A stretch of DNA of 64,000 bases from an uncultured Colwellia sp. (GTDB lineage Bacteria > Pseudomonadota > Gammaproteobacteria > Enterobacterales > Alteromonadaceae). Below the pieces are notes generated by a model. That model saw nothing but the letters and a program-made list of their open reading frames with translations, made no database searches and was not told the origin of the DNA. Where the stretch lies: assembly GCA_963974965.1 (NCBI GenBank), contig CAXBEX010000004.1, positions 21,978 through 85,977 on the forward strand, given 5' to 3'. Below are positions 21,760-45,945 of the stretch, in pieces. Numbering within the stretch: the stretch's first letter is position 1; each line of letters begins with the position of its first letter. Both the position numbers and the translations under genes were made by a program.

Positions 21760-22578
21760 ATGTTATGCTTCACAATCCTCACTACGATAAAAACTAATAA
21801 AATGATTTCAGCTGTGTCGAAATTTTTATCCCTTATTATTCTTGCTCTCTCCTGCATTTTATATACAAAATTCTCACAAGCTCAACCCGTACGCATTGCC
21901 ATTATAATTGACGATATTGGTTATCGTTACACCGACAAAAACGCTTTATCATTACCCGGTGCTATCACCTACTCTATTTTACCGCATACACCTTATGGCA
22001 AAAGAATAGCCCTTAAAGCCAACGCAAAACATAAAGACGTAATGCTACATATTCCTATGGAAGCCGAAAATGGCAAAAAATTAGGTCCTGGTGCACTGAC
22101 GAGTACGATGAATAGAGAAGAAATTGTAGCAAGCTTAAATGCATCTTTAGCTGAAGTACCTTTTGTTATTGGTATTAATAATCATATGGGTAGCCATTTA
22201 ACACAATTAGATGATCCAATGACATGGACTATGAATTTTTTAAAGCAACATAATTTACTTTTTTTAGACAGTAAAACCAGCCCCTATTCTAAAGCTGGAA
22301 GTATTGCAAAATTAGTGGGAGTTCCAGCGAAAAATCGTAATATATTTCTCGATAATCAATTAACTGATAGTTATATTACTAAACAGTTTCAGTCTTTAAT
22401 TAACCATGCAAAGTCTCAAAAAGTAGCTATTGCTATCGCTCACCCTCATCCTGAGACAATTCGGGCTTTAAAGCGCTTAATTCCTACACTGGCGAAAAAC
22501 AATATTGAGCTAGTACCGCTATCGGCTTTATATTCAACGCTTGAAGGTTACCAGACCCAAGTGGCGATTAGTGAATGA
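21760..22578 (+). CDS. yibQ: Divergent polysaccharide deacetylase family protein (YibQ)
   Basis: IIIDDIG, LHIPME, INNHMGS, FLDSKT, IAHPHPET; follows envC. Confidence 0.92.
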   Translation: MLCFTILTTIKTNKMISAVSKFLSLIILALSCILYTKFSQAQPVRIAIIIDDIGYRYTDKNALSLPGAITYSILPHTPYGKRIALKANAKHKDVMLHIPMEAENGKKLGPGALTSTMNREEIVASLNASLAEVPFVIGINNHMGSHLTQLDDPMTWTMNFLKQHNLLFLDSKTSPYSKAGSIAKLVGVPAKNRNIFLDNQLTDSYITKQFQSLINHAKSQKVAIAIAHPHPETIRALKRLIPTLAKNNIELVPLSALYSTLEGYQTQVAISE

Positions 22579-22722: not shown

Positions 22723-23514
22723 CTATAACTTAATATTATTTTCTCTTATTATTTGATGTAAGTATTTAACGGGAATCGCGTAAGTAATGCCACTCGGGTT
22801 GCTAATAACAGCTTCTTTAGTCGTTTGCACAAAAACCTTATTAATAATACCCAAAACCTCACCAGTTTTCATATCATACATAGCGCTGCCACTATTGCCG
22901 GGATAAGCCGTTGCATCTAATTGATAAACAAAATAAGGGTTACGCATACGCTTGAGCATCTTCAAACTAATTTGCCCTGCTGTTTGTGCTGGCACAATAG
23001 TAGGCGTTACACTGGAAATTATTCCTCGGTGAGTGACAGGATATAAACCTAAAACACTGCCAATAGGAAACCCAGTAAACGCAATATAAGTGCCGTCGCC
23101 ACAAAACTCTTCGCCCGATAGCGTCATCGCAGGTAACGCTGCACCTGATATTCTCAAAATTGCTAGGTCATATAAGGGTGAAGTAACCACAATTTCAGCT
23201 TGTCGAACCATTGCCTCTTTTCCTGAACCAATAAATACCGCCATTTTTTGCAATAAGCTGTCATCAAGCTCAGTAGGTAAAACATGGGCATTAGTTACCA
23301 CATAATGTCCACCGCCAATAACAAACCCGCTGCCACGCAAAGTATTTTGCGGCTGGCTTGTTGGCGTATGGATACCAATACCTACCACCGAAGGTTTAAC
23401 CTTTGCCACAACGTCAACAAACTCGGATTTTGCCAACTCGCTTTTTGCCTCAGCTAAAAAGGCTGAAAAGACTAACATCGTGAAAAACAAAACAATATAA
23501 CGCTTGTTAAGCAT
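22723..23514 (-). CDS. Secreted trypsin-like (S1) serine protease at the edge of the exosortase locus
   Basis: Signal peptide; triad contexts TNAHV, DLAIL, PGNSGS; no PDZ domain. Confidence 0.88.
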   Translation of the reverse strand: MLNKRYIVLFFTMLVFSAFLAEAKSELAKSEFVDVVAKVKPSVVGIGIHTPTSQPQNTLRGSGFVIGGGHYVVTNAHVLPTELDDSLLQKMAVFIGSGKEAMVRQAEIVVTSPLYDLAILRISGAALPAMTLSGEEFCGDGTYIAFTGFPIGSVLGLYPVTHRGIISSVTPTIVPAQTAGQISLKMLKRMRNPYFVYQLDATAYPGNSGSAMYDMKTGEVLGIINKVFVQTTKEAVISNPSGITYAIPVKYLHQIIRENNIKL

Positions 23515-23824: not shown

Positions 23825-24649
23825 ATGAACTGGAATAAAAGCCTGCTAAACACCCCCATTATTGGAGATATAACAAAAAAACTCGCCTCGATGAAAGTGA
23901 GTCATGACGCCTACAATATTACTGAGCATTTTACCCAGTTTTTAGAGCCACAAATTGCGATTAACAACACATTAAAAGAGGAAGCGTTCAAAATACGCCA
24001 TAATGTTTATTGTGAAGAGTTAGCTTTTGAAGACGTCAAAGAAGGCGGGCAAGAAAAAGATGAGTTTGACGAACAATCCATTTTCTCTCTGATCAAGCAC
24101 AAACCCTCAAATATTTACACCAGCTGTATCCGCGTAGTAAAGATTATGGAAGAAAGTCAGCTTTTACCCATAGAAAAATTTTGTCTTGATTCAATCACCA
24201 ATGAAGAGCTACACCCAAAACGTTTTAATAGAAATGAGATTTGTGAAATTTCACGACTAGCAGTAAAGTCTGATTTCAGACGTCGTAAAACCGATCGATT
24301 TAAAGGCTCTAGCACTGGTGTTATTCAAGAAACAAATTATTCTGAGGTTGAATTACGTTGTTTCCCTTTTATCGCTATTGGTTTATACATGGCTGCAGCT
24401 ACTATGGCAATAGACACAGGTATAAAGCATGTTTACGTAATGATGGAGCCAAGGCTGGCTCGAAGCATGAAGTTTGTTGGTATCAAATTTCAACCACTTG
24501 GAGACCCCATTGAATACCATGGATTAAGAGCGCCGTACTATATCAACCCTGAAATATTTCTTTCTAACCTATCTCCTGGCTTTAAAAATTTATACAAAGC
24601 GATAGAACATGATATTTCTGATCAACTCAATAGTTTGAAATTGATATAA
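23825..24649 (+). CDS. PEP-CTERM/exosortase system-associated acyltransferase (LuxI/FeeM N-acyl amino acid synthase-like)
   Basis: IRHNVYCEELAFE...EKDEFD, CIRVV, LPIEKFC, CEISRLAV: the R-x2-VY...DEFD...EISR pattern of the AHL synthase/FeeM fold; exosortase context. Confidence 0.85.
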   Translation: MNWNKSLLNTPIIGDITKKLASMKVSHDAYNITEHFTQFLEPQIAINNTLKEEAFKIRHNVYCEELAFEDVKEGGQEKDEFDEQSIFSLIKHKPSNIYTSCIRVVKIMEESQLLPIEKFCLDSITNEELHPKRFNRNEICEISRLAVKSDFRRRKTDRFKGSSTGVIQETNYSEVELRCFPFIAIGLYMAAATMAIDTGIKHVYVMMEPRLARSMKFVGIKFQPLGDPIEYHGLRAPYYINPEIFLSNLSPGFKNLYKAIEHDISDQLNSLKLI

Positions 24650-24741
24650 CAAAAAATCACGAGTAGGTTCGCATTCTTTCTGACCAGCTGGAGTTGACCA
24701 GAATAGGGGCAATAAATTACCCCCTACCTATTGATTAAAGC

Positions 24742-27513
24742 TTACTTCAACAAACTCTGCTTCTTCTCTTTCTGCTTTACGGTTACCGCATTTATCTCAT
24801 CCAAAATAAGCTTAGCCTTTTTGTGCATGTTATTCGCTAACAAGGTCTCAGCAAAATTTAAAGCAATATCAATATCTTGCCCTTTTGACTTTTCTTTAGA
24901 CTTTTCTTTAGATAAGTCATAAGCTTCTTGTGCTTTAGCTAATGCTTCAACTTTTTTGTCAGATTTTAATAACGCTTGAGCATAAGTATCAACTACATTA
25001 GGTATTTGAGTTGTCAGACTATAGGCTTGTTCAGCATATTGTAGTGCTTGAACATATTTTCCTTGGTCCATATAAAGCCAAGATAAATTATTTAACGCCA
25101 CAATATTATTAGGTACTACTTTAATCAGTCGCTCATACTCAACGATAGCCTTATCTTGATGCTCAGCTAAATACATATTAGCCAAACTCAAACTAACTTT
25201 TGGGTTGATTTTATTGTCTATTTCATTCCTATCAGAGTGCTGTTCAAGTAATTTTATCGCTTCATCTTTTTGATTGTTTGCCTCTAAAGCAAAAGCAAGG
25301 AAGGTTGCATTAATACTGTCAGGTTTGGCTTGATACTGCTGTTTTAATTTTGGCACAGCCGCCGCAAACTCTTTATCGAGTAAAAGAATTCGCCCTTCAA
25401 TACCTGCAAGTAAGTTTTTATTGATGTCAAATTTAGCCAGTGATTGGAATAATAATTTAGCGTCATCACCGCGATTATTATTTAATAGAATCTGCATTTT
25501 CACTAAATGAAGCATCACATTGTTTGGGTGCTTTTTAAAAGCGTCATTTAAAACACCCAATGCTCTGTCGGGCGATTGCTTACTAGCCCAGTAGTTAGCT
25601 AATAAAAATACAGGCTCAATATGGTATGTATTCGTTGTATGCCATTTATCTAAAATTGAAAATATGTCTTTACCTTCAGTTTGCTTAGCATTAGCAGCAA
25701 GTGATAACTGCCAATAGCGCTTAGGTGTTTTAACATTTAATTCATAACCATCTAGTACAGAAATCGCTTGTTTAAATTGCTCTAAGTGCATTAATGCTTC
25801 CGCTAATACTACGCCATATTGGACATTATCAGCATTACTTTGCTGAGCTTGAGTGATTACTTTCAATCCTTCTTCATTTTTATGAAACTCAAAGTACTGA
25901 CGAAGCACTTCAATATTATTAGGATGCGCCTTTAGTGCTTGCTCTGTTAATAATACCGCTTGCGCTGTTTCTTTTTGATAATTGGCAAGTTTCACCAGTT
26001 GCGTTAACGCATAGACATTATTAGGCTCTACTTTTAAGCTTTTCTCTAATGCCGCCTTACCTTGCGCTAATTTGCTCTCTTTAAAGAAAATAGTAGCGTA
26101 CAGGTTATAACCTCCTGCTTTATTAGGGTATTCTTTCAACCATTTATCAGCGATGGTCGTTGCCCGAGATAAATCGCCTGATTTAATTGATGCAAAAGCT
26201 AAGGCAAGCTCTGCGGAAACTAACTCAGGGTTTTGTTGCAAGGCTAATTCTAACGTTTCAATACCCGAAGGGTCGTTCATCATCAGCTTTAACACGCCAG
26301 TTCTTGCCGTTTGCTCAGCGGTCATTTCGCTTGAACTAGCCGCATATTTCGCCATTTCTTGTGCTTTTTCAAAGGCACCTACTTCTAATAATTTATAGCT
26401 TAATGTTGATAAAAACTGGGCATTTTCTTTAGTTGTTGAGTCATAACCCGTTAAAGTTTCGCTAATATCATCAATCAAACCTAGCTGTAATTGACTGATA
26501 GCAAGCATTCTTCTTGCAGAATGCTCAGGGGAAAGATATGGCATTAAATCTTTTAAATGGTTATGACTTTGTTCATAATTTTTTAAATAAAACGCACTTG
26601 CGCCCGCTACTAATTTCAAACTAAAAGAGTTAAAACCTGAGCTTAAAGATTGATTAGCATAGCTACTTGCCGCTTCAAAATCTTTATTTTCAAAACGCGC
26701 CATCGCTTTAATATATTGCAAAAATGGCTGAGTTGGCACTTTAGCCAATAGAGTATCCGCAATTTTTTCCGCTTCTTCATACTGGCCATTTTTTATTAAT
26801 GAATCAGCAATAAACAACTGCACTCTACCTGAGCTAGGTTGCAGTTTTAAATATTGCTTAAAGCTATCAACGGCTAAAGAATAATTCTTATCTGCCGTCG
26901 CTATTTGCCCTTGTAGCATAAGCGCATCTGCATTGTTTGGTGTTGCCGTTAAAATACGTTCAACCAATGTCCTTGCATGATCAATTTTTTGCTGTAAAAA
27001 CTCTAAATAAGCACTCGCTAGCATGCTATAACCATCGTTTTGGGAAACAGAAAGCGCGGCCTCAACAGTTTCTTGTGCAAGCGTTTTATCATCTGTGCGC
27101 AATGCAGCCATTGTTTTATAGGCAAGATATTGCGTGCTTGTTGTTGATAACAGCTTTTCTTGAGAGGCAAGCGATAAAATATCTTCATCATATTCCGCCA
27201 ACATATAAGCACGAGCTAACAAAGGAATGACTTTATCTACATTGAATTTTAATTTATGGGCACGCTCTAATTCCTTTATTGCATTTTCTGCATCACCTTC
27301 TCTTAAATAGAGTTGACCTAATAAAAATCTCGCCTGTGCATTTTCAGCCTCAACTTTAAGTGCATTTTTTAGCGAAATAATTGCAGCGCTATTTTGTTTT
27401 TCAACGATCAAGCTTTCTGCTTTACTGATATAGGTTTGCGCTGATTCATTGTCGCTACAAGCAGATATCACTAAAACAATACTTGCACAGACTATTGATT
27501 TTAAAAAATTCAT
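24742..27513 (-). CDS. prsT: PEP-CTERM system TPR lipoprotein PrsT, copy 1
   Basis: Lipobox VISAC, AAIISLKNALK...ARFLLGQLYL..GD...A.KEL signature, ~920 aa of TPRs, ends ALNNLSW...NVVDTYA. Confidence 0.9.
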   Translation of the reverse strand: MNFLKSIVCASIVLVISACSDNESAQTYISKAESLIVEKQNSAAIISLKNALKVEAENAQARFLLGQLYLREGDAENAIKELERAHKLKFNVDKVIPLLARAYMLAEYDEDILSLASQEKLLSTTSTQYLAYKTMAALRTDDKTLAQETVEAALSVSQNDGYSMLASAYLEFLQQKIDHARTLVERILTATPNNADALMLQGQIATADKNYSLAVDSFKQYLKLQPSSGRVQLFIADSLIKNGQYEEAEKIADTLLAKVPTQPFLQYIKAMARFENKDFEAASSYANQSLSSGFNSFSLKLVAGASAFYLKNYEQSHNHLKDLMPYLSPEHSARRMLAISQLQLGLIDDISETLTGYDSTTKENAQFLSTLSYKLLEVGAFEKAQEMAKYAASSSEMTAEQTARTGVLKLMMNDPSGIETLELALQQNPELVSAELALAFASIKSGDLSRATTIADKWLKEYPNKAGGYNLYATIFFKESKLAQGKAALEKSLKVEPNNVYALTQLVKLANYQKETAQAVLLTEQALKAHPNNIEVLRQYFEFHKNEEGLKVITQAQQSNADNVQYGVVLAEALMHLEQFKQAISVLDGYELNVKTPKRYWQLSLAANAKQTEGKDIFSILDKWHTTNTYHIEPVFLLANYWASKQSPDRALGVLNDAFKKHPNNVMLHLVKMQILLNNNRGDDAKLLFQSLAKFDINKNLLAGIEGRILLLDKEFAAAVPKLKQQYQAKPDSINATFLAFALEANNQKDEAIKLLEQHSDRNEIDNKINPKVSLSLANMYLAEHQDKAIVEYERLIKVVPNNIVALNNLSWLYMDQGKYVQALQYAEQAYSLTTQIPNVVDTYAQALLKSDKKVEALAKAQEAYDLSKEKSKEKSKGQDIDIALNFAETLLANNMHKKAKLILDEINAVTVKQKEKKQSLLK

Positions 27514-27553
27514 TTGACATTCCTGTTTTGGGTGATAGTAGCTATGGGGTCAT

Positions 27554-28942
27554 TTATTGTAATAACAGCGCCAATACTTCTTGGGTTTTCTCTTTCATTA
27601 ACGCGACATTACCTTTGGACTCAACATTCAACCTAACCACGGGCTCGGTGTTACTGCTGCGTAGGTTAAAACGCCACGTACCAAACTCCATACTTATGCC
27701 GTCAGTTTCATCGATCACTTGAGCATCGTTTTGATAATATGCAAAAACTCGGGCAATGGCAGCTTTAGGGTCGGTAATTTTACTATTAATTTCCCCTGAT
27801 GAAGGATAAGCTTCAATACGGGCTTTAACCAAACTAGATAAAGGTTGTTTACGTAAACACACCAATTCGGCAATAAGTAACCAAGGGATCATGCCACTAT
27901 CACAATAGAAAAAATCGCGAAAGTAATGATGGGCACTCATTTCACCGCCATAAATAGCATCTTCACTGCGCATACGCTCTTTTATAAAGGCATGTCCTGT
28001 TTTGCTTTGGATCGCCTGACCACCTGCTTGCTCAACAATATCGATTGTATTCCACGTTAAGCGTGGATCATGAATAACTTTACTGCCTTGATTCTTATTA
28101 AGAAAATTCTCAGCCAACAAACCGACAATATAATAGCCTTCAATAAACTGTCCTTGTTCGTCAAATAAGAAACACCTGTCAAAATCACCATCCCAAGCAA
28201 TGCCCATGTCAGCATTATGCTCAATTACCGCATCACGTGTCGCTGCCCTATTTTCAACTAGAAGTGGATTTGGGATGCCATTAGGGAAATTTCCATCGGG
28301 TTGATGATGAACTTTAATAAATTCCACTGGCACGTGTAACTGTTTAAAAATGGATTCAATAGCATCGAGTGTTGGGCCGGCAGTGCCATTACCTGCGTTA
28401 ACAACCAATTTCAATGGCTTACCTGATAGAGAGTCTGGTAATGAAAAATTTTTAACATCAATATACGTTAACAAATGATCAGTATAGGCCTGACTAATAT
28501 CAACCATTGATAGTTGACCCCTTTCAGTTACATCAGTAAACTCATTACGCTCTGCTAAGATCTTAATATCAAAAAGACCGGTATCACCACTGATAGGTTT
28601 AGAGTTTTCACGTACCAACTTCATGCCATTGTAATCAATAGGGTTATGGCTGGCCGTCACAACAATTCCACCATCACAATGTAAATGGCTAGTAGCAAAG
28701 TAAATATGCTCAGTGCCGCACAAGCCTATATCAATAACATTAGCACCGCCGTCCATTAAGCCGTTAGCAAGTGCCAACTTCAACTCTTCACTGGTTAAAC
28801 GAATATCGCCACCCACAACAACTTGTTTGGCGTTAGTGTGCTGAGCAAAAGCACGTCCTATGCGATAGGCAATGTCAGTGTTTAATTCTTCGCCGAGTTT
28901 ACCGCGAATGTCGTAGGCTTTAAAACAAGTTAGCTGTGTCAT
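27554..28942 (-). CDS. manB: Phosphomannomutase (CpsG/ManB)
   Basis: [40 protein letters not shown]. Confidence 0.96.
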
Positions 28943-30393
28943 TAATTCGCTCTTCCGTAACGATCTTCAAAACGAATAATATCATCTTCCCCTAAATAAC
29001 TTCCCGATTGAACTTCAATCATTTCTAATGGTAATTTACCCGGGTTTTCTAGCGCATGTACAACGCCTATAGGAATGTAAGTTGATTGGTTTTCACTTAA
29101 TAAGATTGTTTTCTCATCAAGAGTCACTTTTGCTGTTCCTGACACTATAATCCAATGCTCAGCTCGATGATGATGCATTTGCACAGACAATTTAGCGCCG
29201 GGGTTTACCGTTATGCGTTTTACTTGAAATCGCTCGCCATGATCAACACTGTCATATTTACCCCAAGGACGGTAAACCTCACGATGCAATTTTGTTTCTG
29301 GGCGTTGTAGTGCTTTTAGCTCATTTACTATGTCTTTAACATTTTGTACTTTATCCTTATCTGCCACTAAAACGGCATCAGGGGTATCAATAATCACCAA
29401 GTTATCAACACCTAAAGTCGCAATAAGTTTGTTTTGACTATGTATGTAACTATTACGGGTGTCATGGGCGATAACATCACCTTTAAGGACATTATGCTGC
29501 GCATCTTGCTCACATACTTCCCAAAGTGCAGAATAAGAGCCTACATCACTCCAACCAGCATCAAGTGGCACCACTACGGCATCAGCCGTTTTTTCCATTA
29601 CCGCATAATCAATAGACTCATCAGCACATTGTAAAAAAGCCTTACGATCTGGGCGGATAAAGTCTAAGTCTTTTTCTACTTTAGTCATCGCTTCTTGGCA
29701 AGCAGCTAAAATATCAGGCCTAAATTTCTCTAGCTCTTCAATGTAACGGCTTGCTTTAAACAAGAACATGCCGCTATTCCATAAATATTCGCCCGAAGTT
29801 AAATAGGCCTGAGCAGTTTTTTTATCTGGTTTTTCAACAAATTGAGCAACTTTATATGTACCATTTTCCTTTTCGCTACCTTGTTTACTTCCCTTTTTAA
29901 TATAACCATAACCAGTTTCTGCATGTGTTGGCATAATACCAAAAGTAACTAATTCCCCTTGTTCTGCCGCTATTGTTGCGACATCAATTGCCTGATGGAA
30001 TTTTTGTTTATCTCTAATAACATGATCAGCCGCTAACACAAGCAATAGTGTATCTTTACTTGAGGCAAGTGCGTTCAAGGCTGCAAGTGCCACCGCAGGT
30101 GCGGTATTACGCCCCTGAGGTTCAAGCAAAATAGTGGCATCATTACATTTTACTTGTTTAACCTGTTCAGCTACTAAAAATCGATGATCTTCATTACAAA
30201 TAAATACCGGCGCTTGGTGCTCTAATGGCAAACGAGCCAAGGTGTCTTGCAACATGCTGGTATCATTTACTAAGGGAATAAATTGTTTGGGGAATTGAGA
30301 CCGAGAAAGTGGCCATAAACGTGTACCACTGCCTCCGCACATGATAATAGGTGATATAGGTAATTTAACTGAATTTATTTGATTCATCATCAT
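28942..30393 (-). CDS. manC: Mannose-1-phosphate guanylyltransferase/mannose-6-phosphate isomerase
   Basis: [33 protein letters not shown], cupin RPWG...HHHRAEHW. Confidence 0.97.
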
Positions 30394-30583
30394 TCCATTA
30401 TATATTTCAAGGAAAAAGAATATCTATGCCGTAATAATAAAGCATTTAGCACTTTTTTAAAATGAAATTAAAACAAACCCCTTCTACTTAATATACTGAT
30501 TAAGGTGTATATTTATAGCAATACCTGTACGTTAGAATTGTTTTACTGTTGTTCGCAAAAATACAAGTTAGAAGGAACATGAA

Positions 30584-31438
30584 ATGTTTAACTACGAAAA
30601 AGCATTCTCGAGAAATATTGGCTGGATTACAGAGGAAGAACAACAAACTCTTCGCGGTAAAAAAGTTGCGATAGCAGGGGCTGGTGGCGTAGGTGGCGCA
30701 CATTTACTGACTTTAGCCAGATTAGGTGTCGGAAATTTTTACATCTCAGATTTTGATGATTTTGAGGTACATAACTTCAACCGTCAATCAGGCGCGTTTA
30801 TGTCGACATTAGGAGAACAGAAAGTTGATGTTATGGAGCGAATGGCTCGAGATATTAACCCAGAAGCAAACATAAAATCTTTTCCTGAAGGGATTTTTGA
30901 ACACAACGTTGATGAATTTCTAGAAGATGTTGATTTATACGTAGACGCCCTTGATTTTTTTGCCTTAGATGCACGTAAAACTGTTTTTAAAAAGTGTTAC
31001 GATAAAAAAATTCCGGTAATCACGGCAGCACCACTGGGTATGGGCGCTGCTTTTTTATGTTTTATGCCTGACAAAATGACTTACGAAGAGTATTTTCGTT
31101 TTGAAGATAAAAATACTGAAGAAGATCAACTCATACAGTTTTTAATTGGTTTATCTCCTGCTATGTTACAGCGTCCTTACTTAATTGATGAAAGCCGAGT
31201 TAGCTTTAAAGAAAAGCGAGGTCCTTCAACGGCTATGGCAGTTAACCTTTGTGCAGGAATAGCAGAAACTTACGCACTTAAAATATTACTGAATCGCGGA
31301 GAAATAATTACAGCACCATACGGGCTTCACTTCGATGCTTACCGCAATAAATACAAAAAAACATGGCGACCATTCGGTAACGCAGGCTTAATGCCGAGAA
31401 TAATGTTTCATATAGCCAAAAGAATTGTGGCAAAATAA
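30584..31438 (+). CDS. Stand-alone ThiF/E1-like adenylyltransferase
   Basis: AFSRNIGW, GAGGVGG, DFDDFEVHNFNRQ. Lacks the Zn CxxC pairs of ThiF/MoeB; ends FDAYRNK..TWRP.GN. Confidence 0.85.
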   Translation: MFNYEKAFSRNIGWITEEEQQTLRGKKVAIAGAGGVGGAHLLTLARLGVGNFYISDFDDFEVHNFNRQSGAFMSTLGEQKVDVMERMARDINPEANIKSFPEGIFEHNVDEFLEDVDLYVDALDFFALDARKTVFKKCYDKKIPVITAAPLGMGAAFLCFMPDKMTYEEYFRFEDKNTEEDQLIQFLIGLSPAMLQRPYLIDESRVSFKEKRGPSTAMAVNLCAGIAETYALKILLNRGEIITAPYGLHFDAYRNKYKKTWRPFGNAGLMPRIMFHIAKRIVAK

Positions 31439-31578: not shown

Positions 31579-32919
31579 ATGAAAGTCACAGTTTTTGGTA
31601 TTGGTTATGTTGGTTTAGTTCAGGCCGCTGTTTTAGCATCTGTTGGTCATGATGTGGTGTGTGTTGATATTGACCAAACTAAAGTTGATAACCTTAAAAA
31701 AGGCGAGATCCCAATTTATGAACCCGGTTTAACACCACTTGTAGAAGAAACCTATAAAAATGGATTACTAAACTTTACTACTGATGCAAAAGCAGGTGTT
31801 GAGCATGGTGAAGTTCAATTTATTGCCGTAGGCACTCCGCCAGATGAAGATGGCTCTGCTGATTTAAAGTATGTATTAACGGTTGCACAAACCATCGCAA
31901 CCTACATGACTAACCCTAAAATTGTAATAGATAAGTCAACTGTTCCAGTTGGTACTGCAGATAAGGTAACCGACAAAATAGCCTCAGTTCTAGCATCAAG
32001 AAAAGTAGACATTGAATTTAACGTAGTATCAAACCCAGAATTTTTAAAAGAAGGCGCAGCAGTTAGTGACTGCATGAAGCCTGACCGTATTGTAGTAGGT
32101 ACTGATAGCGAAGCTTCACGAGCTGTAATGCGCGAACTATATGCGCCATTTAATCGTAATCATGATCGTATGATATTTATGGATGTACGATCAGCTGAGC
32201 TAACTAAATACGCAGCAAACTGCATGTTAGCAACCAAAATTAGTTTTATGAATGAAATGTCTAATTTAGCTGAGTTATTAGGCGCCGATATTGAAGCTAT
32301 ACGTCATGGCATAGGTTCAGATTCACGCATTGGCTATCAATTTATTTATCCTGGCTGTGGTTATGGCGGTTCGTGTTTCCCTAAAGATGTACAAGCATTA
32401 GTACGAACTGCTCACGGAGTTGAATATAAACCCGTTTTATTAGAAGCTGTTGAAAGTGTTAACTACGCTCAAAAACAAAAATTATTTAAAAATCTAAATA
32501 CCTATTTCAATGGTGATTTATCAGGTAAAACCGTTGCAGTTTGGGGCTTATCATTCAAACCACAAACCGATGATATGCGTGATGCATCTTCAATGGTATT
32601 AATGGAGTCTTTATGGGCTGCTGGCGCAAAAGTACAAGCATATGATCCAGAAGCAATGGAGGAATGCCAACGTATTTATGGCGTAAGAGATGATTTATCA
32701 CTGGTTGGTACAAAAGAGTCGGCTTTAAATGGGGCTGATGCTTTAGTAGTTTGTACAGAATGGAGCCAATTTAGAGCACCAGATTTTGACTTAATTGAAA
32801 AAGCACTATCACACAAAGTGATTGTTGATGGTCGTAATCTTTACGACCCAGCATTACTTAAGCAGCGTGGTTTTGCTTATTACGGTATTGGTCGTGGTGA
32901 GAGTATTCAAAACGTATAA
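31579..32919 (+). CDS. ugd: UDP-glucose 6-dehydrogenase
   Basis: [21 protein letters not shown], catalytic [15 protein letters not shown]. Confidence 0.97.
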
Positions 32920-32927
32920 TGTCTGTA

Positions 32928-33224
32928 CTTCGACAAGCTCAGTATAGACGGGACTCGCTGTCTGTCTTGAACCGTGACCGTTCGCTCTGAGCTGTCGAAG
33001 GCTTTAAACCGTTCGCTCTGAGCTATCGAAGGCTTTAAACCGTTCGCCCTGAGCCTATCGAAGGCTTTGAGCCATTCGCCCTGAGCCTATCGAAGGCTTT
33101 GAGCCATTCGCTCTGAGCTGTCGAAGGCTTTAAACCGTTCGCCCTGAGCCTGTCGAAGGCTTTAAACCGTTCGCCCTGAGCCTGTCGAAGGCTTTGAGCC
33201 GTTCGCCCTGAGCCTGTCGAAGGG
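32928..33224. repeat. CTTCGACAAGCTCAG-family element with one left arm and an 8-unit tandem array of 31-32-bp right arms
   Basis: Left arm CTTCGACAAGCTCAG..ACGG at 32928. Units CC(G/A)TTCGC(T/C)CTGAGC(C)T(G/A)TCGAAGGCTTT(AAA/GAG) start at 32978, 33009, 33040, 33072, 33104, 33135, 33167 and 33199. Confidence 0.95.
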
Positions 33225-33252: not shown

Positions 33253-34257
33253 GTGAAATTTTTAGTGACCGGCGCGGCTGGCTTTATAGGTTTTCATGTA
33301 GTACAACGCTTATGTGAACAAGGTCATGAAGTTATCGGTATTGATAACTTAAATGACTATTACGATGTTAATTTAAAATTGGCACGCTTAGATGAGCTTA
33401 AAGAATACAAATTATTTAAATTCATCAAGCTAGATCTTGCTGACCGAGAAGGCATTGCGCAATTATTTTCTCAACAGAAGTTTGAGCGAGTAATACATTT
33501 AGCCGCACAGGCAGGGGTTCGCTACTCTATTGATAACCCAATGGCTTATGCTGACTCTAACTTAGTTGGTCATTTAACCATATTAGAAGGTTGTCGCCAT
33601 AATAATGTTCAGCATTTAGTTTACGCTTCATCAAGCTCTGTATATGGCTTAAACAGCAAAACCCCTTTTGCAACATCAGACAGCGTTGATCACCCTATTT
33701 CATTGTATGCCGCAACTAAAAAATCAAATGAATTAATGTCGCATACCTATTCACATTTATATGGTATTCCAACAACAGGCTTAAGATTTTTCACTGTTTA
33801 TGGCCCGAGGGGTCGACCAGACATGGCTTTATTCAAATTTACTAAAGCAATAATTAATGGTGAAAGTATTGATGTATATAATAATGGTGATATGCGAAGA
33901 GACTTTACCTACATAGATGATATTGTGGAAGGCATTATTAGAATTCAAGATGTCATTCCACAAAAAAATAATGCTTGGAAAATTGAGTCTGGCTCTGCTG
34001 CTGCCAGCTCAGCCCCTTATAAAATATTCAATATAGGTAATGGTAACCCAGTTAAGCTGCTAGATTTTATTGAGTCTTTAGAAAGTTCTCTGGGCATAAA
34101 AGCAACTAAAAATTTAATGCCAATGCAACCAGGCGATGTTTATCAAACTTATGCCGATGTTGAAGACCTATTTAGTATTACAAAATATAAACCTTCAATG
34201 ACTTTGGAAAAAGGTGTCAAAGAGTTTGTAGATTGGTATAACGGTTTTTATTCATAA
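33253..34257 (+). CDS. NAD-dependent epimerase, UDP-glucuronate 4-epimerase type
   Basis: TGAAGFIG, HLAAQAGVRYS, ASSSSVYG, YAATK, FFTVYGP.GRPDMA, PMQPGDV; GTG start. Confidence 0.92.
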   Translation: MKFLVTGAAGFIGFHVVQRLCEQGHEVIGIDNLNDYYDVNLKLARLDELKEYKLFKFIKLDLADREGIAQLFSQQKFERVIHLAAQAGVRYSIDNPMAYADSNLVGHLTILEGCRHNNVQHLVYASSSSVYGLNSKTPFATSDSVDHPISLYAATKKSNELMSHTYSHLYGIPTTGLRFFTVYGPRGRPDMALFKFTKAIINGESIDVYNNGDMRRDFTYIDDIVEGIIRIQDVIPQKNNAWKIESGSAAASSAPYKIFNIGNGNPVKLLDFIESLESSLGIKATKNLMPMQPGDVYQTYADVEDLFSITKYKPSMTLEKGVKEFVDWYNGFYS

Positions 34258-34368: not shown

Positions 34369-34384
34369 TGGCATATTCCATGCT
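34369..34384 (+). promoter_or_regulatory. Sigma54 (-24/-12) promoter of the PEP-CTERM gene
   Basis: TGGCAT-ATTCC-ATGCT with exact GG-N10-GC spacing, 60 bp before the ATG. Confidence 0.75.
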
Positions 34385-34443: not shown

Positions 34444-35436
34444 ATGAATAAATTAAATAAAATTTTATGCGCTGTGGCTCTAGCCTTTGTAGGTAGTGTT
34501 GCAAATGCAGGCTACTTCCAATTAAACGTTGGCAATAATGGCTATGACGTAGATGCACCAACATGTTTGGAAGCTTTTGGTAGTGCTACTTATTGTGCTA
34601 ACCCTGCCAACGCAGGAATTATTGCTACTGTTATTGCAAACGCTACAGTAACAAACGGTAACGGCGATGCAAATTCGCAGACTGGTTCTTTTACCGAGTT
34701 TGGCTTTAGTCAATTATTAGGCACATCAATTTATGACTTTAGTAACAATAGTATTTTGGGTGATTTTTATGACACCAACATTACTAGCGAATTACTTGCC
34801 GCTGGCATAACTGATGGAGTTAGTGGTCTAGCGTTAGATGGCTTAACAAATGTAACTCTAAATTATCCATCTACGGGTCAAATGGATTTAGATGCATTGT
34901 CACCATTAGCACCACCACTGAATGGAACAGATAATGAAGGCTTTTTAGCTGCTTGGGAATTGAACACTCAATTCTTATTTGAAGGTACTTTAACAGCGAC
35001 AGGTCCAGTTTATACTGGTGGCTTCTTTGAAGTTTGGTTCCAAGACTTAGATAATGCTGCAAATAACTTTTTAGGCTTTAAGGGTGAGGTTGTTGGCTCT
35101 AATTTACAAGCCGCTAACTTAGATATCTTCTTGAAAATCACTGAAGCGACTCAAGGCTTCTTATTTGATGGAGCAACTGAGAATGGTGTGTTTACAGATG
35201 TTTATGATATCATCGCTCAAACTGGTGGTTATAGTATGGTGATTGATACAAATGTTAACCCGCCAATCCCTACTCTTGATTCTCTTTTATTAGTACAAGG
35301 TGATCAACAGCAATTCAGTGTTGTACGTCAAGCATCTTTAGATGGTTCAGTAAATGCTGTTTCGGAACCGTCAACACTAGCGGTATTAGGGTTAGGTTTA
35401 CTGGCTTTTGGCGCATCACGTCGTCGTAAAGCATAA
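34444..35436 (+). CDS. PEP-CTERM (VSEP variant) exosortase-target surface protein, possibly PepA-like
   Basis: Signal peptide (ANA), Gly/Thr/Asn/Asp-rich body, C-terminal VSEPSTLAVLGLGLLAFGASRRRKA. Confidence 0.92.
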   Translation: MNKLNKILCAVALAFVGSVANAGYFQLNVGNNGYDVDAPTCLEAFGSATYCANPANAGIIATVIANATVTNGNGDANSQTGSFTEFGFSQLLGTSIYDFSNNSILGDFYDTNITSELLAAGITDGVSGLALDGLTNVTLNYPSTGQMDLDALSPLAPPLNGTDNEGFLAAWELNTQFLFEGTLTATGPVYTGGFFEVWFQDLDNAANNFLGFKGEVVGSNLQAANLDIFLKITEATQGFLFDGATENGVFTDVYDIIAQTGGYSMVIDTNVNPPIPTLDSLLLVQGDQQQFSVVRQASLDGSVNAVSEPSTLAVLGLGLLAFGASRRRKA

Positions 35437-35457
35437 CTTGACAAAATACAACTTAAT

Positions 35458-35488
35458 AAAAAAGGCAGCTAATTTAGCTGCCTTTTTT
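35458..35488 (+). terminator. Intrinsic (bidirectional) terminator
   Basis: AAAAAAGGCAGCT-AATTT-AGCTGCCTTTTTT. Confidence 0.9.
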
Positions 35489-35570
35489 ATTATCTAAATT
35501 TTATATAAGTAAAGCTTCTTAATTAAGGCATTTTGAATTACCATCAATATACATTATTAAGGATAAAGAT

Positions 35571-38105
35571 ATGTTTAAATTTAGGTTAATTCTCATCACA
35601 TGCTTATTTGTTACTTCCTGTAGTAAGCAGGTTTCCGTAGAACAATTAATCGATCAAGCTAATGAGGCACTAATTAATGGAGATAATGCTACCGCTATAA
35701 TTCATTTAAAAAGAGCATTACGCCGAGAGAATGGCTCTATTGACGCTCATTTTTTACTTGGTAAATTATATTTAGAAAATGGTGATTTTTTATCTGCTCA
35801 AAAAGAAATTGAACGCGCCTTGAGCCTTTCAACTAATAATGAAGGCTATATTACAGATTATTTTAGAGTACTAAACGAAACTGAAAATGAAAGTACAGTG
35901 CTGGATTTTTATAAAAAACAAGAAGCGCTTACTGATAGTGCAAAGTTACATGCTGCATATTCAGCCCTTAAAGTAAATGATATGGGGCTATTCGAGAAAA
36001 TATCACAACAAGTCAACACGAAAAACTTAACAACCCAAGAAGCTAAATTTCATAGATTACTATTGCTAGCGAGCAAACAAGATAGTGTTGCAATTCAAAG
36101 TGAGTTTTCCACACATTTAAAAAAAGATCACATCATAGTTGAAGGGTTAGAACTACTAGGGCACCTTTTCTCTAGAGATAAAAAATACGCTTTAGCTGTG
36201 CGGGCTTATAAAGCGGCTTATCATTTAAGACCTAAAAATAATGTACTGAAAATTTTAATTGCTCAAAACTTAATACAAGGTAACAATTTTAGTGATGCAA
36301 AACCTTATATAAAAGAGTTGTTAACTCAATTTCCAAATCACGGATACTCTCATCAGCTCGCGGCTCAAGTTGCAATAAATGATAGCGATTTTCAACTCGC
36401 TAAATTACACGCCACTAAAGCAATTTTATCAGGATTAAATTCAAACATAAACACTGTAATAGCAGGATTATCTTCATACCAGCTTGGCATGTACGAACAA
36501 GCAAGATCATATTTACTATCCATATCAAGAGAGCTACCAACATCACACCCCATACAAAAAGTACTTGCAGCAACCAGCTTAAAGCTAGGGTTTACTAATG
36601 AGGCGGTAGAACAACTCTCTGACATCTCCTTAATTACAGATAACGACTTTGACTTAATCGCCTCTGCTAGCATCAATTTGATTCAAAATAACCAAGCTGA
36701 CAAAGCAAATGAGTTATTAAGTAAAATAGCAAGTCCTGATGATACCAACAATGCTAATTTGCTCAGTAAAGTTGGAGTTTTAAAACTTTCTGCACAAGAC
36801 ATTTCTGGTATGGGTTTTTTGTACAAGGCAATAAGAATTGATGGGGATAGCTACTCAGCAAAAACAATGCTAATTTCATCTTTTCTTAGCACAAATAAAA
36901 ATAAAGAAGCTAAAAGTCAAGTGATTAAATGGCTAACGAAAACCCCTGAAGATACTGCACTTTTAAACATGCTAGCGTATATTGAAATAAAAAATCAAAA
37001 CCATAAAGAAGCCAAGATAATTTTCACTCAAATAATAACTATTGAGCCGACTAATATTAAAGCTAATATGTTTTTTGGTGTAACTGAATTCAAACAAGAA
37101 AATTTTCAAACGGCGATAAAATCATTCAATACTATAGTTCAGAAACATCCTAACTATTTACCTGCATTGCTTGGTCTTTACTTATCAGAAAAGTCATCTG
37201 GTGATACAACTCAATCAATTAAATTAATCACTTCTCAAGCTAAGGAAGACTCTCGTATTAAGTTATTGTTAGCTAAAATATATATAACAGAACACCAATA
37301 TATTGATGCGGTTGCAGTATTAAACACATTCAAGAGTCCAAGTATTATTGCCCAAATAGAAGATTTAAAGAGTTCTGCCTATATTGCTTTATATGATGAG
37401 GAAAATGCACTGACCGCGATTAGCAATTGGCGAAAAGTAGATCCGTCTAGTGAAAGGGCATTAATACTTAAGCTATCTATTTTAGAGTTAAATAAATCTC
37501 ACGAGCTAGCATTACAAGAGATTAGCTCCTTTAAAAGGAACAATCCTTACTCCTTGAAATTAGATCTACTTGAGATAAACTTTCAATTACTTGCAAATCA
37601 GGTAAGTAAAGCTGTTGAGTTACTTGATAAATTGAAGGAAAAAAATGTTAATACGACTCTGCTTTTACCATTAGAAGCTAGATCTAAATACCAGCTAGCA
37701 AACTATAAAGTAGCTCTCCCTTTGTTAGTAACGAGTTATGAAAATGATCCAAGTAGTATCTTTGCAAGTCTTATATACACAAGTTTAGTAAAGTTAAACA
37801 AAATAAATGAAGCTGTTACTTTCTTAGAAAAAAGAGTAACAGACTTTAGTGCTGATACTAAATCACGCCTATTTCTTGCAGATACACTCAGTAAAATAGA
37901 TAAAAATAAAGCTTTAGAGCATTTTTACATACTTAATGAACAGCTTGAAAATAATCTCATGGTTTTGAATAATATTGCTTGGCTTTTACATGAGCAAGGA
38001 AAAAATAAAGAAGCGCTTCCATATGCACAAAAGGCGTTAGATATTGCTCCTACTAATCTTCAACTACAAGATACCATTAATCAGATAAAGGCTGCTATAC
38101 AATAA
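35571..38105 (+). CDS. PrsT-like TPR lipoprotein, copy 2
   Basis: Lipobox FVTSC, TAIIHLKRAL...AHFLLGKLYL.NGD..SAQKE, ends LNNIAWLL...DT; 844 aa. Confidence 0.82.
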   Translation: MFKFRLILITCLFVTSCSKQVSVEQLIDQANEALINGDNATAIIHLKRALRRENGSIDAHFLLGKLYLENGDFLSAQKEIERALSLSTNNEGYITDYFRVLNETENESTVLDFYKKQEALTDSAKLHAAYSALKVNDMGLFEKISQQVNTKNLTTQEAKFHRLLLLASKQDSVAIQSEFSTHLKKDHIIVEGLELLGHLFSRDKKYALAVRAYKAAYHLRPKNNVLKILIAQNLIQGNNFSDAKPYIKELLTQFPNHGYSHQLAAQVAINDSDFQLAKLHATKAILSGLNSNINTVIAGLSSYQLGMYEQARSYLLSISRELPTSHPIQKVLAATSLKLGFTNEAVEQLSDISLITDNDFDLIASASINLIQNNQADKANELLSKIASPDDTNNANLLSKVGVLKLSAQDISGMGFLYKAIRIDGDSYSAKTMLISSFLSTNKNKEAKSQVIKWLTKTPEDTALLNMLAYIEIKNQNHKEAKIIFTQIITIEPTNIKANMFFGVTEFKQENFQTAIKSFNTIVQKHPNYLPALLGLYLSEKSSGDTTQSIKLITSQAKEDSRIKLLLAKIYITEHQYIDAVAVLNTFKSPSIIAQIEDLKSSAYIALYDEENALTAISNWRKVDPSSERALILKLSILELNKSHELALQEISSFKRNNPYSLKLDLLEINFQLLANQVSKAVELLDKLKEKNVNTTLLLPLEARSKYQLANYKVALPLLVTSYENDPSSIFASLIYTSLVKLNKINEAVTFLEKRVTDFSADTKSRLFLADTLSKIDKNKALEHFYILNEQLENNLMVLNNIAWLLHEQGKNKEALPYAQKALDIAPTNLQLQDTINQIKAAIQ

Positions 38106-44100: not shown

Positions 44101-45945
44101 ATGTTTGAATTAGAAGTTGATAACGCAAAAAAAAGTATAGTTTTTCTCCCTAAAAATATCTTACGTGAATTTGAAAAACACACTGTCAATCATAGTAACA
44201 TTTCTGGCGCTGTACTTACTCAGTGGGAAGAGCATTGTACAGAATGTGCTGCGCCATCTTGCTACAATACATGTGAATTATACGAATCAAGACCCGATGG
44301 ACGGTGCCGTAGATTTAAAGATGGCATAGAGTTGTATCATAATAAGAGAAATGATTTAGAGTCAATTGTCCGAATTGAATTTAAGAAATGGGCATCATTA
44401 TTAACACAAACAAATCAAAATTCAATTCCACTAAATACAATCATTCCTACCGAAAAAAAGGCAAGAAAATTAGAATTGTTGTCTTCTTTTTCACCACTCA
44501 ATTCTTTAACCGTATTGGGTAGAAAAGGACTCCCAATACGGTTAATTAGAAGAATGAAAACATCACTTAAAAATAATGAATCAACAAAAACTAAACCTTA
44601 TCAATTGAGTGATTATTTTATTTTTGAATTGATTAACGATGAAAAATTTTCATTTTCTATAACATTATCAAACCGCGCTTTAAGTGGGAATAAAAACCAA
44701 ACACCTTACCAGAAAAAGCTTGACGTATTGCCCGGTTACAATAAATTTAAGATTCAAACCTCAGAAATGGCTCCATTTATCAATTTAGGTGAAGAAAATC
44801 ATGTGACTTTGACACCTAACATTGATAATTGCAGTAAAGATACCGTAGTTGTTTATATTCGTGATTTCGGTTTTTATTCAGAATTATCCGCATGTAAACC
44901 AGTAAAAGTACTTGTATGGGACTTAGATAATACGTTATGGGATGGCATTTTAGTTGAAGATGAAGTCGAAAATGTTTTCTTGAAAAAAAGTATTATCAAA
45001 GTATTGAAAACTTTAGATCAACGTGGGATTGTATGCTCTATTGCTAGTAAAAATGACTATGACAACGCATGGAAAAAATTAACAGACTTGGGGATATCTC
45101 AGTACTTTTTGTTTCCACAGATCAACTGGGGGCCAAAGAGTCAGTCTATTAAGCAGATTGCGACTGATTTCAATGTAAATATTGATACCATTGCATTTAT
45201 CGATGATTCAGAATTCGAACGTAAAGAAGTTTCAGATTCTTGTTCACAGTTAAGAATTTATCATGATGCACAATATTTGGAGATTTTGGAAAAAGATGAG
45301 TTTAATCCTGAATTATCATCTGAATCATCCAGACGTAGAGAGTTCTATACTAATCAAAAAGCTAGAAAAAACGCTGTGTCCGATTTTCCAGGCGATTATA
45401 TGGCATTTTTAAAGCAATGCGACATGCATGTACATATGATAACTAATCTATTGCCTCACATTGATAGGGTTCATGAGTTAAGCCAACGAACAAATCAAAT
45501 GAACTTCTCTACTATGCGATATACTAAAGAAGAAATAAGATCGTTTATTACTAACCCTGAAAAATTTTCATTTGCAATGCAAGCAAAAGATAATTTTGGT
45601 GATTATGGAATCGTAGGTTTTGCAGTATTTGACATCAAAAAAAGCTTATTAGAAGACTTAATGTTCAGTTGTCGAGTGCAATCGAAAAAAGTAGAGCATG
45701 AAGTATTATTGTGGCTTATTAGGAAAGCCAAAATTGACTTTTCCATTAAAAAGATTCTAGCTTCTTATAAACCTACGGAGAAAAATACGCAATCAGGTAA
45801 AGTATTTGATGATTTACACTTCTCAACAATATCATACAAATCTGGTATTAAAACACTTGAGTACCCAATAGACCAAAGTGATGCACCATTAGGCGTACTT
45901 ACTATTACAACTGAAGATAAAATTGGCCCCTCTAATGAAAAATAA
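44101..45945 (+). CDS. FkbH-like HAD-IIIC phosphatase/glyceryl transferase with Cys-rich N-terminal domain
   Basis: VWDLDNTLWDG, SIASKND, INWGPKS, FIDDS.FER, RTNQMN, DNFGDYG, FSCRV; N-terminal CTECAAPSCYNTC. Confidence 0.85.
   Translation: MFELEVDNAKKSIVFLPKNILREFEKHTVNHSNISGAVLTQWEEHCTECAAPSCYNTCELYESRPDGRCRRFKDGIELYHNKRNDLESIVRIEFKKWASLLTQTNQNSIPLNTIIPTEKKARKLELLSSFSPLNSLTVLGRKGLPIRLIRRMKTSLKNNESTKTKPYQLSDYFIFELINDEKFSFSITLSNRALSGNKNQTPYQKKLDVLPGYNKFKIQTSEMAPFINLGEENHVTLTPNIDNCSKDTVVVYIRDFGFYSELSACKPVKVLVWDLDNTLWDGILVEDEVENVFLKKSIIKVLKTLDQRGIVCSIASKNDYDNAWKKLTDLGISQYFLFPQINWGPKSQSIKQIATDFNVNIDTIAFIDDSEFERKEVSDSCSQLRIYHDAQYLEILEKDEFNPELSSESSRRREFYTNQKARKNAVSDFPGDYMAFLKQCDMHVHMITNLLPHIDRVHELSQRTNQMNFSTMRYTKEEIRSFITNPEKFSFAMQAKDNFGDYGIVGFAVFDIKKSLLEDLMFSCRVQSKKVEHEVLLWLIRKAKIDFSIKKILASYKPTEKNTQSGKVFDDLHFSTISYKSGIKTLEYPIDQSDAPLGVLTITTEDKIGPSNEK

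Follow-up and report, generated by a model that had tools for sequence, protein, structure and literature searches.

What is made by an enzyme that activates N-acyl amino acids when it lies in an exosortase locus without an accompanying oxidase? This question is raised by a stretch of DNA from an uncultured Colwellia sp. (assembly GCA_963974965.1, contig CAXBEX010000004.1, positions 21,978 to 85,977; its 64,000 nt are called here the window), in which the genes for two proteins, N-acyl amino acid synthase (NAS) and a stand-alone ThiF-family adenylating enzyme, flank three genes of the opposite strand. From the letters of the window, an earlier reading (the original prediction) had proposed that these two proteins form a pathway for activating N-acyl amino acids, without a nitroreductase and possibly devoted to lipidation. 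Our comparative analyses favor, with reasonable though not high confidence, that the NAS and the ThiF protein are a functional pair constituting an oxidase-less acyl-oxazolone pathway, by which a saturated 5(4H)-oxazolone would be formed from an N-acyl amino acid at the expense of ATP and without oxidation; the best explanation for its location is that the role of the product is tied to the biology of the exosortase and the exopolysaccharide (EPS). The two genes, and those between them, are the following:

23825-24649, plus strand: exosortase-associated NAS (FeeM/LuxI-like GNAT) of 274 aa (TIGR03694)
24742-27513, minus strand: PrsT, the XrtA/PEP-CTERM system TPR-repeat protein (TIGR02917, 683 bits)
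27554-28942, minus strand: phosphomannomutase, ManB/CpsG-like (NF011943, 772 bits, slightly under the cut-off of 801; four PGM/PMM Pfam domains)
28942-30393, minus strand: mannose-1-phosphate guanylyltransferase / mannose-6-phosphate isomerase, ManC (TIGR01479, 766 bits)
30584-31438, plus strand: ThiF-family adenylating cyclase of 284 aa, stand-alone and of OxzB/TyzB/TrzS type (NF006077, 420 bits)

Both focal reading frames were found exactly as the original prediction described them, and the three genes between them do correspond to prsT-manB-manC, all on the minus strand. The acyltransferase had also been termed "split," which is right in that its gene is apart from that of ThiF, but the NAS gene itself is intact.

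The ThiF protein matched model NF006077 (PRK08223) with 419.9 bits, over positions 5-285 of 296 and against a cut-off of 266 that was exceeded in none of 14 control genomes, and it matched PF00899 with 152 bits. It also matched the N-terminal part of the longer models NF011424 (679 positions) and NF011425 (989 positions), below their cut-offs. The likeness to the adenylating domain of oxazolone synthetases, proposed earlier, was borne out by alignment: residues 2-284 are 50-64% identical to the ThiF half of di-domain proteins of ca. 660 aa, whose C-terminal halves match the Rv1355c (TrzS) and Acg FMN-oxidoreductase models, as in the architecture of OxzB and TrzS, composed of a ThiF domain and an oxidase domain (FDO). 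In a sample of 400 genomes of the class (class sample), around 13 of the 36 ThiF-positive genomes carry ThiF as a protein of this size, and a 649-aa protein of the di-domain type from another Colwellia sp. is 56% identical to the window ThiF over its full length. A search of 1.8 billion representative proteins likewise retrieved as nearest relatives mostly di-domain proteins of 650-690 aa, with stand-alone forms interspersed among them. Among the best 80 matches in a scan of genome contigs for ThiF relatives we found Colwellia, Thalassotalea, Pseudocolwellia and many beta- and gammaproteobacteria, and no P. rubra.

The motifs AFSRNIGW, GAGGVGG, HNFNRQ and HFDAYRNKYKKTWRP, quoted in the original prediction, are all present in the translation, and a ribosome-binding site (AGAAGGAA) lies 7 nt 5′ of the ATG. 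A comparison of 76 ThiF sequences revealed 54 positions conserved in at least 95% of them, including the GxGGxG motif, D58, NRQ at 66-68, K80 and D121/D124; the window protein carries the conserved G32, G34, G35, G37, D58, N64, N66, R67, Q68, K80, D121, and D124.

It could be argued that the ThiF protein has a role apart from that of the NAS, its activity on a protein, a sulfur carrier or a tRNA being E1-like or TcdA/MoeB-like, and that its position in the locus is incidental. TcdA and MoeB are indeed its nearest solved structures by sequence, with ca. 50 bits and over residues ~19-151 only, and the gene is not adjacent to the NAS gene in this genome. However, its scores against the TcdA, MoeB, and ThiF models (65, 80, and 93 bits) are all well under the respective cut-offs (304, 266, and 159), it does not cluster with these enzymes, and it has no CxxC zinc motif, as the original prediction had noted. 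Moreover, a true TcdA, with 363 bits, and a protein resembling MoeB, with 254 bits, are encoded elsewhere in the genome, and the co-occurrence of ThiF with the NAS, their adjacency and their fusions, described below, are near perfect or recurrent. An independent role is thus very improbable, and the window ThiF is, to judge from its sequence, of the oxazolone-cyclase kind and not a housekeeping TcdA or MoeB.

The NAS is also a clear member of its family, with 258.3 bits to TIGR03694 (PEP-CTERM/exosortase system-associated acyltransferase; cut-off of 111.95) over positions 2-239 of 241, and further Pfam matches to Acetyltransf_5, FeeM and Autoind_synth; a search of solved structures by sequence gave no match for it. 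The gene is single copy in the genome, has an intact reading frame, and shows a dN of 0.16-0.25 to its relatives, with saturated dS.

Neither the window ThiF protein nor the rest of the window contains an FDO domain, hence the protein is not an oxazolone synthetase proper, defined by a fused or adjacent FDO. An FDO-domain profile found no match in the six-frame translation of the whole genome (assembly completeness of 99.89%; best E of 0.07), and a wider profile of 13 sequences, including divergent stand-alone FDOs, retrieved nothing from it at E ≤ 0.001. The lack of a nitroreductase, pointed out before for the locus, therefore extends to the whole genome for the type of FDO that partners such ThiFs. 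This lack had been implicitly regarded as peculiar to the locus, which turned out not to be the case. In a sample of 91 genomes of the same GTDB family (family sample), and with FDO counts covering the ThiF-positive genomes, an FDO occurs in 15 of 45 and is missing from the remaining 30, so that, in this bacterial family, the oxidase-less form prevails. For the class sample, 22 of the 36 ThiF-positive genomes contain a strong FDO, either fused, adjacent or, once, on another contig than ThiF (G215), and 12-14 contain none.

A tree of the 76 ThiF sequences placed the window protein in a clade of 16 members that are all oxidase-less (support of 95), and contained a second all-oxidase-less clade of 13 members (support of 100); the FDO state switches on this tree at least 5 times, and 11 times by parsimony. 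We found no position in these sequences separating the oxidase-linked ThiFs from the clade of the window. Within this clade dN is 0.10-0.14 and dS is saturated, and because the proteins keep 78-92% identity across genera at such a synonymous divergence, omega is ca. 0.03-0.07 or lower. The existence of oxidase-less clades, together with the low dN and the conserved motifs, indicates that ThiF has been maintained, with its active site unchanged, long after the loss of the oxidase; by these comparisons the lack of the oxidase is stable and of long standing.

The same data bear on whether the ThiF gene is just a functionless relic left behind by the loss of the oxidase. Such an idea would account for the missing FDO, for the disrupted operon of the window genome and for two genomes of the same genus that lack ThiF, but it is at odds with the intact reading frame, the retention of all catalytic motifs, the degree of identity across genera and the existence of entire oxidase-less clades. 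We strongly disfavor it, and of all the alternatives considered it is the one to which we assign the least probability.

A different possibility is that a non-homologous oxidase or desaturase replaces the FDO, and that unsaturated oxazolones or N-acyl dehydro-amino acids, similar to thalassotalic acids, are still produced. Relatives from the same family possess complete NAS-ThiF-FDO operons (L096-L101 and L047, the latter next to the same protease and deacetylase genes as in the window), and N-acyl dehydrotyrosines are produced by a Thalassotalea strain whose genes include those for a NAS, a ThiF and a nitroreductase (PMC12479983). Genome G215, cited above, is in turn a case of an FDO gene on another contig than ThiF. 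Against this, the two profiles found no FDO-like sequence in the window genome, and the FDO was lost at least 5 times on the tree, with losses that persist in large clades. Additionally, we clustered every open reading frame lying up to 7 kb from ThiF in 75 loci, 42 of them oxidase-less; no redox enzyme was enriched among the neighbors in the oxidase-less loci, and where genes separate NAS from ThiF they encode sugar-nucleotide enzymes. A hidden oxidase is consequently an unlikely explanation and, as with the independent role and the relic, less likely than an oxidase-less pair.

One of the loci, L103 (G482:C8), has an FDO gene 3′ of ThiF in three pieces with stop codons. The reading frames for the protease, the deacetylase and the NAS of this locus are likewise fragmented and the genome is 76% complete, so the broken FDO may be an assembly error rather than a decaying oxidase.

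Is the ThiF gene coupled to the NAS and to the exosortase beyond the window? In the family sample, the presence of the three genes is nested: 65 of the 91 genomes contain an exosortase, 62 a NAS and 45 ThiF. The exosortase occurs in 60 of the 62 NAS-positive genomes, whereas the NAS and the exosortase each occur in 44 of the 45 ThiF-positive genomes (Fisher p = 4e-10 and p = 1e-8, respectively; these p values ignore phylogenetic relatedness). The exceptions to the co-occurrence with ThiF are one case at a contig end and one assembly that is 76% complete. In the class sample, the NAS is present in 29 of the 36 ThiF-positive genomes and in 21 of the 364 ThiF-negative ones. The co-occurrence of this ThiF clade with the exosortase-associated acyltransferase and the exosortase, by which the original prediction was to be judged, is thus upheld in both samples. 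There are also 17 genomes, out of the 91, with an exosortase and a NAS and without ThiF, from which we deduce that the activation step is dispensable for the core function of the exosortase.

The NAS gene adjoins the ThiF gene in most of the 75 loci, and both can be fused in a single protein, as in NAS-ThiF (P0132) and methyltransferase-ThiF-FeeM (P0173). The order that recurs in the family is deacetylase - protease - (patatin-like lipase) - NAS - ThiF - (FDO) - PEP-CTERM protein/PrsT, with the gene for the trypsin-like protease next to that of the NAS in 36 of the 75 loci, and homologs of the PEP-CTERM protein encoded at 34444-35436 adjoining ThiF in many other loci. In the window, 6 kb containing the three genes of the opposite strand separate NAS from ThiF, while in relatives the two are adjacent or 2.5-4 kb apart. 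In the closest relatives they are separated by 12-14 bp (as in L071 and L076) or by sugar-nucleotide genes, among these a gene for a 757-aa protein, a fusion of a UDP-GlcNAc 2-epimerase and a ManNAc dehydrogenase. We read the separation seen in the window as secondary, the result of rearrangement in an operon that ancestrally comprised NAS and ThiF.

Several other features vary among these loci. A gene for a patatin-like phospholipase lies between the protease and NAS genes in 27 of the 75 loci (L047:3125-3940 and 26 more); in the window no such gene occupies this place. Proteins in which a methyltransferase is fused to ThiF, or to ThiF and FeeM, occur in the ThiF clade (P0151, P0163, and P0173), which suggests a methylating branch of the pathway. 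Within the genus, the locus is highly variable: genome G486 retains the deacetylase-protease-NAS block (L108), with a 63% identical NAS and with no ThiF, PrsT or ManBC downstream, and in genome G442 NAS, ThiF and exosortase are all absent.

Seven loci from the class sample (L034, L040, L042, L043, L053, L054, and L055) display, beside ThiF, NAS, and PepA, a conserved trio of genes, the products being an HAE3/MMPL-like RND transporter of ~753 aa and two proteins that are DUF1302-like (~610 aa) and LolA-like (~260 aa). The trio is found in many ThiF loci from other gammaproteobacteria and from betaproteobacteria, oxidase-less loci among them, and is a candidate lipid exporter. We looked for such a linked lipid pump in the window genome and discarded it, finding only distant, unlinked homologs of the trio.

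Taken with the published biochemistry of related enzymes, these data lead to the following proposal. The NAS, given its family, would acylate an amino acid at its amino group with a fatty acyl chain taken from acyl-CoA or acyl-ACP, yielding an N-acyl amino acid; amino acid N-acylation is the reaction of OxzA and of TyzA-type enzymes (bioRxiv 10.1101/2020.06.11.147165; PMC10404671). The ThiF protein, cytoplasmic in type, would then, by homology, adenylate the free carboxylate using ATP, and attack of the amide oxygen on the acyl-adenylate would generate a saturated 2-alkyl-4-substituted 5(4H)-oxazolone (azlactone). OxzB requires ATP, and Colwellia chukchiensis produces oxazolones (bioRxiv 10.1101/2020.06.11.147165). 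In TrzS, the ThiF domain cyclizes the substrate before it is desaturated, an Asp in the adenylation motif is indispensable, and the saturated cyclized intermediate builds up with the oxidase mutant R540A or when O2 is limiting (PMC12856293). With no FDO in the genome, the third step, desaturation, would be missing, and the conjugated, colored and more stable oxazolone, or the dehydro-amino-acid lipid, would not be formed. The end product would then be the reactive saturated oxazolone or a derivative of it, such as a hydrolyzed or racemized N-acyl amino acid or an adduct.

Several considerations weigh against such a pathway. Being prone to hydrolysis, a saturated 5(4H)-oxazolone looks wasteful of ATP as an end product. 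The NAS and ThiF genes of the window, 6 kb apart, belong to separate transcription units, and the kinship of the ThiF protein to the characterized OxzB, TyzB, and TrzS is drawn from architecture, NCBIfam models and published descriptions. Lastly, TyzB was initially placed at the end of its pathway, acting on a desaturated substrate (PMC10404671), and some cyclases of the clade need not accept a saturated one; according to a later paper, cyclization and desaturation can take place in either order (PMC12856293).

What the product would be used for brings in the rest of the window, which comprises the following features in addition to the five genes listed above:

21760-22578, plus strand: divergent polysaccharide deacetylase (PF04748, 254 bits), at the left edge of the EPS/exosortase locus
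22723-23514, minus strand: trypsin-like serine protease (PF13365, 75 bits)
31579-32919, plus strand: UDP-glucose 6-dehydrogenase-type nucleotide-sugar dehydrogenase, ugd (TIGR03026, 463 bits), 140 bp 3′ of ThiF
32977-33223, no strand: tandem array with 7.8 copies of the 32-bp unit ACCGTTCGCCCTGAGCCTGTCGAAGGCTTTAA (Tandem Repeats Finder, 92% matches, score of 375)
33253-34257, plus strand: NAD-dependent sugar epimerase/dehydratase (PF01370, 192 bits)
34444-35436, plus strand: PEP-CTERM protein, secreted and weakly similar to PepA / EDSAP-1 (PF07589, 27 bits; matches to NF041538, NF033554, and TIGR02595)
35454-35492, no strand: strong bidirectional terminator-like hairpin of 18 pairs, the first such site 3′ of ThiF
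35571-38105, plus strand: second PrsT paralog (TIGR02917, 397 bits)
44101-45945, plus strand: FkbH-domain / HAD-IIIC protein of 614 aa, with ~260 unassigned N-terminal residues, in the EPS locus and followed by an HfsH-like deacetylase
60116-62710, minus strand: 864-aa protein with PcRGLX-like (rhamnogalacturonan-lyase-like) domains and no NCBIfam match, adjoining XrtA
62707-64000, minus strand: XrtA (exosortase A), carrying an EpsI domain at its C-terminus (TIGR03109, 230 bits for the part in the window), continuing past the window end

The best matches for the proteins of the window are from Colwellia, Thalassotalea, and Thalassomonas. Positions 1-21688 contain housekeeping genes (ubiE/J/B, rep, gpsA, secB, gpmI, and envC), and the XrtA/PEP-CTERM exopolysaccharide locus spans from 21760 to the window end. 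XrtA, which reaches 293 bits to TIGR03109 as a 496-aa frame over the whole genome sequence, is accompanied in this locus by an XrtA-system amidotransferase, a FemAB-family protein, the second PrsT, glycosyltransferases, an FkbH-like protein, a Wzx-like flippase and an O-antigen-ligase-like protein. The PEP-CTERM protein has a signal peptide and a C-terminal sequence, read directly, of SEPSTLAVLGLGLLAFGASRRRKA. The assignment of the region to an exosortase locus by the original prediction was therefore correct.

Scans of the window for sigma-70 promoters and terminators gave results at chance level except for the strong hairpin at 35454-35492, and the terminator scan revealed no terminator-like site between ThiF and ugd. 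The 32-bp tandem array is situated in the intergenic region between ugd and the epimerase gene, within a probable ThiF-ugd-epimerase-PEP-CTERM transcription unit. With the sigma-54 promoter pattern TGGCAC-N5-TTGCW and up to 2 mismatches, we obtained 38 matches in the window vs. 35 expected, none of them upstream of NAS or ThiF. A sigma-54-like −24/−12 element (TGGCATATTCCATGCT; positions 34369-34384) lies upstream of the gene for the PEP-CTERM protein, at a distance of ca. 60 nt, and would fit control of PepA-type genes by PrsR/RpoN, with the pattern being at chance level window-wide.

The original prediction suggested that the adenylate or the unoxidized oxazolone could be an activated acyl donor, for lipidating PEP-CTERM proteins after exosortase cleavage or for decorating the EPS, or else a signal controlling floc/EPS formation; nothing in our data points specifically to any of these uses. 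As a donor, it would pass the N-acyl-aminoacyl group to an amine or hydroxyl of exosortase cargo, of deacetylated EPS or of a membrane lipid. The attractions of this donor function are chemical as well as genetic. Oxazolones are prone to react with nucleophiles, and their hydrolysis and alcoholysis have been reported (PMC12856293). The oxidase-less form, the more reactive one, is the commonest; the module lies among exosortase genes, often beside a PepA-like PEP-CTERM gene and PrsT, and the neighboring polysaccharide deacetylases are conserved and could expose amines. Also, knock-out of the exosortase-linked NAS in the methanotroph Methylomonas LW13 led to the loss of a polysaccharide band (PMC11072679). 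Conversely, the clustering of the 75 loci showed no acceptor transferase, acceptor-specific gene or other specific partner enriched in oxidase-less loci, and ThiF and NAS are of cytoplasmic type, without export signals, whereas exosortase cleavage would take place at the membrane or in the periplasm, and the EPS would be outside the cytoplasm. The 17 family genomes that run an exosortase and a NAS without ThiF are a further objection. We thus consider a donor function doubtful, little better placed than a hidden oxidase. If true, it would connect N-acyl amino acid synthases chemically with PEP-CTERM/exosortase sorting, a connection long sought, and the versions with FDO would be derived ones, in which the ring becomes locked and a stable secondary metabolite results.

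Returning to the oxidase-less pair, the reason for the association of NAS genes with exosortases, on record since 2011, is to our knowledge not known. Work on acyl-oxazolone pathways (2020-2025) approached them from the side of the oxidase, and took the stable unsaturated oxazolone as the product. Since the cyclase gene is nested in genomes with exosortase and NAS, is oxidase-less in two thirds of its carriers in a large marine family and is under strong purifying selection there, our results suggest a biological use specific to the saturated, reactive oxazolone or to the activated N-acyl amino acid. The window is a rearranged but ordinary member of the oxidase-less group, and two-gene systems in the culturable genera Colwellia, Thalassotalea, and Thalassomonas offer simple test cases. 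Of the earlier interpretation there remain the identity of ThiF, the co-occurrence with NAS and exosortase and the absence of the oxidase; the uniqueness is lost, and a donor or signal function of the product is doubtful.

The chemistry of OxzAB, TyzACB, TrzAS, and of the N-acyl-dehydrotyrosine clusters is already published, as is the link between NAS and exosortase, reported by Craig, Cherry & Brady (2011) as cited in PMC7293339 and PMC11072679. In the literature searched we found no description of the nested distribution, of how widespread and how old NAS-ThiF pairs without an oxidase are, or of their regular placement in XrtA loci. The network presented with TrzAS includes ThiF genes beside "an FDO, an acyltransferase, or both," and the oxidase-less class is neither singled out nor interpreted there (PMC12856293). 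The window NAS, in an XrtA locus, clearly belongs with the exosortase-associated synthases (TIGR03694), whose reports, in the form in which they are cited, do not mention an accompanying ThiF cyclase or an oxidase-less form.

Among enzymes of wider distribution, TcdA (the tRNA ct6A cyclase) and MoeB/ThiF share with the window ThiF the E1-like Rossmann fold (PF00899) and the chemistry of carboxylate adenylation, and TcdA also cyclodehydrates an N-acylated amino acid moiety; they differ from it in the low similarity (~50 bits, residues 19-151) and in the zinc CxxC that the window protein lacks. OxzA/OxzB, from Pseudoalteromonas rubra and C. chukchiensis (de Rond et al.), likewise combine an N-acyltransferase gene with that of a ThiF-family ATP-dependent enzyme, and the window ThiF, from the same bacterial family, can be aligned over its whole length to the ThiF half of proteins with the OxzB architecture. 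However, OxzB is a ThiF-nitroreductase di-domain protein, and there is no oxidase domain in the window protein or its genome; OxzAB is a two-gene operon, whereas the window genes are 6 kb apart. A term search of the text of the OxzAB preprint gave no mention of an exosortase context (bioRxiv 10.1101/2020.06.11.147165). In the TyzACB system, too, a stand-alone ThiF cyclase (TyzB-like) is paired with a separate NAS, and locus L047 has exactly this three-gene NAS-ThiF-FDO operon; the difference lies in the TyzC-like FDO, absent from the whole window genome. A functional parallel to the proposed reaction is found in TrzA/TrzS from M. tuberculosis and relatives (PMC12856293). TrzS falls in a subcluster apart from TyzB and OxzB in a sequence-similarity network (PMC12856293), and its fused FDO immediately desaturates the intermediate, unlike in the window system. 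Nevertheless, its ThiF domain alone turns an N-acyl amino acid into the saturated cyclized oxazolone in vitro, and the catalytic Asp of its adenylation motif is conserved in the window ThiF (D121/D124).

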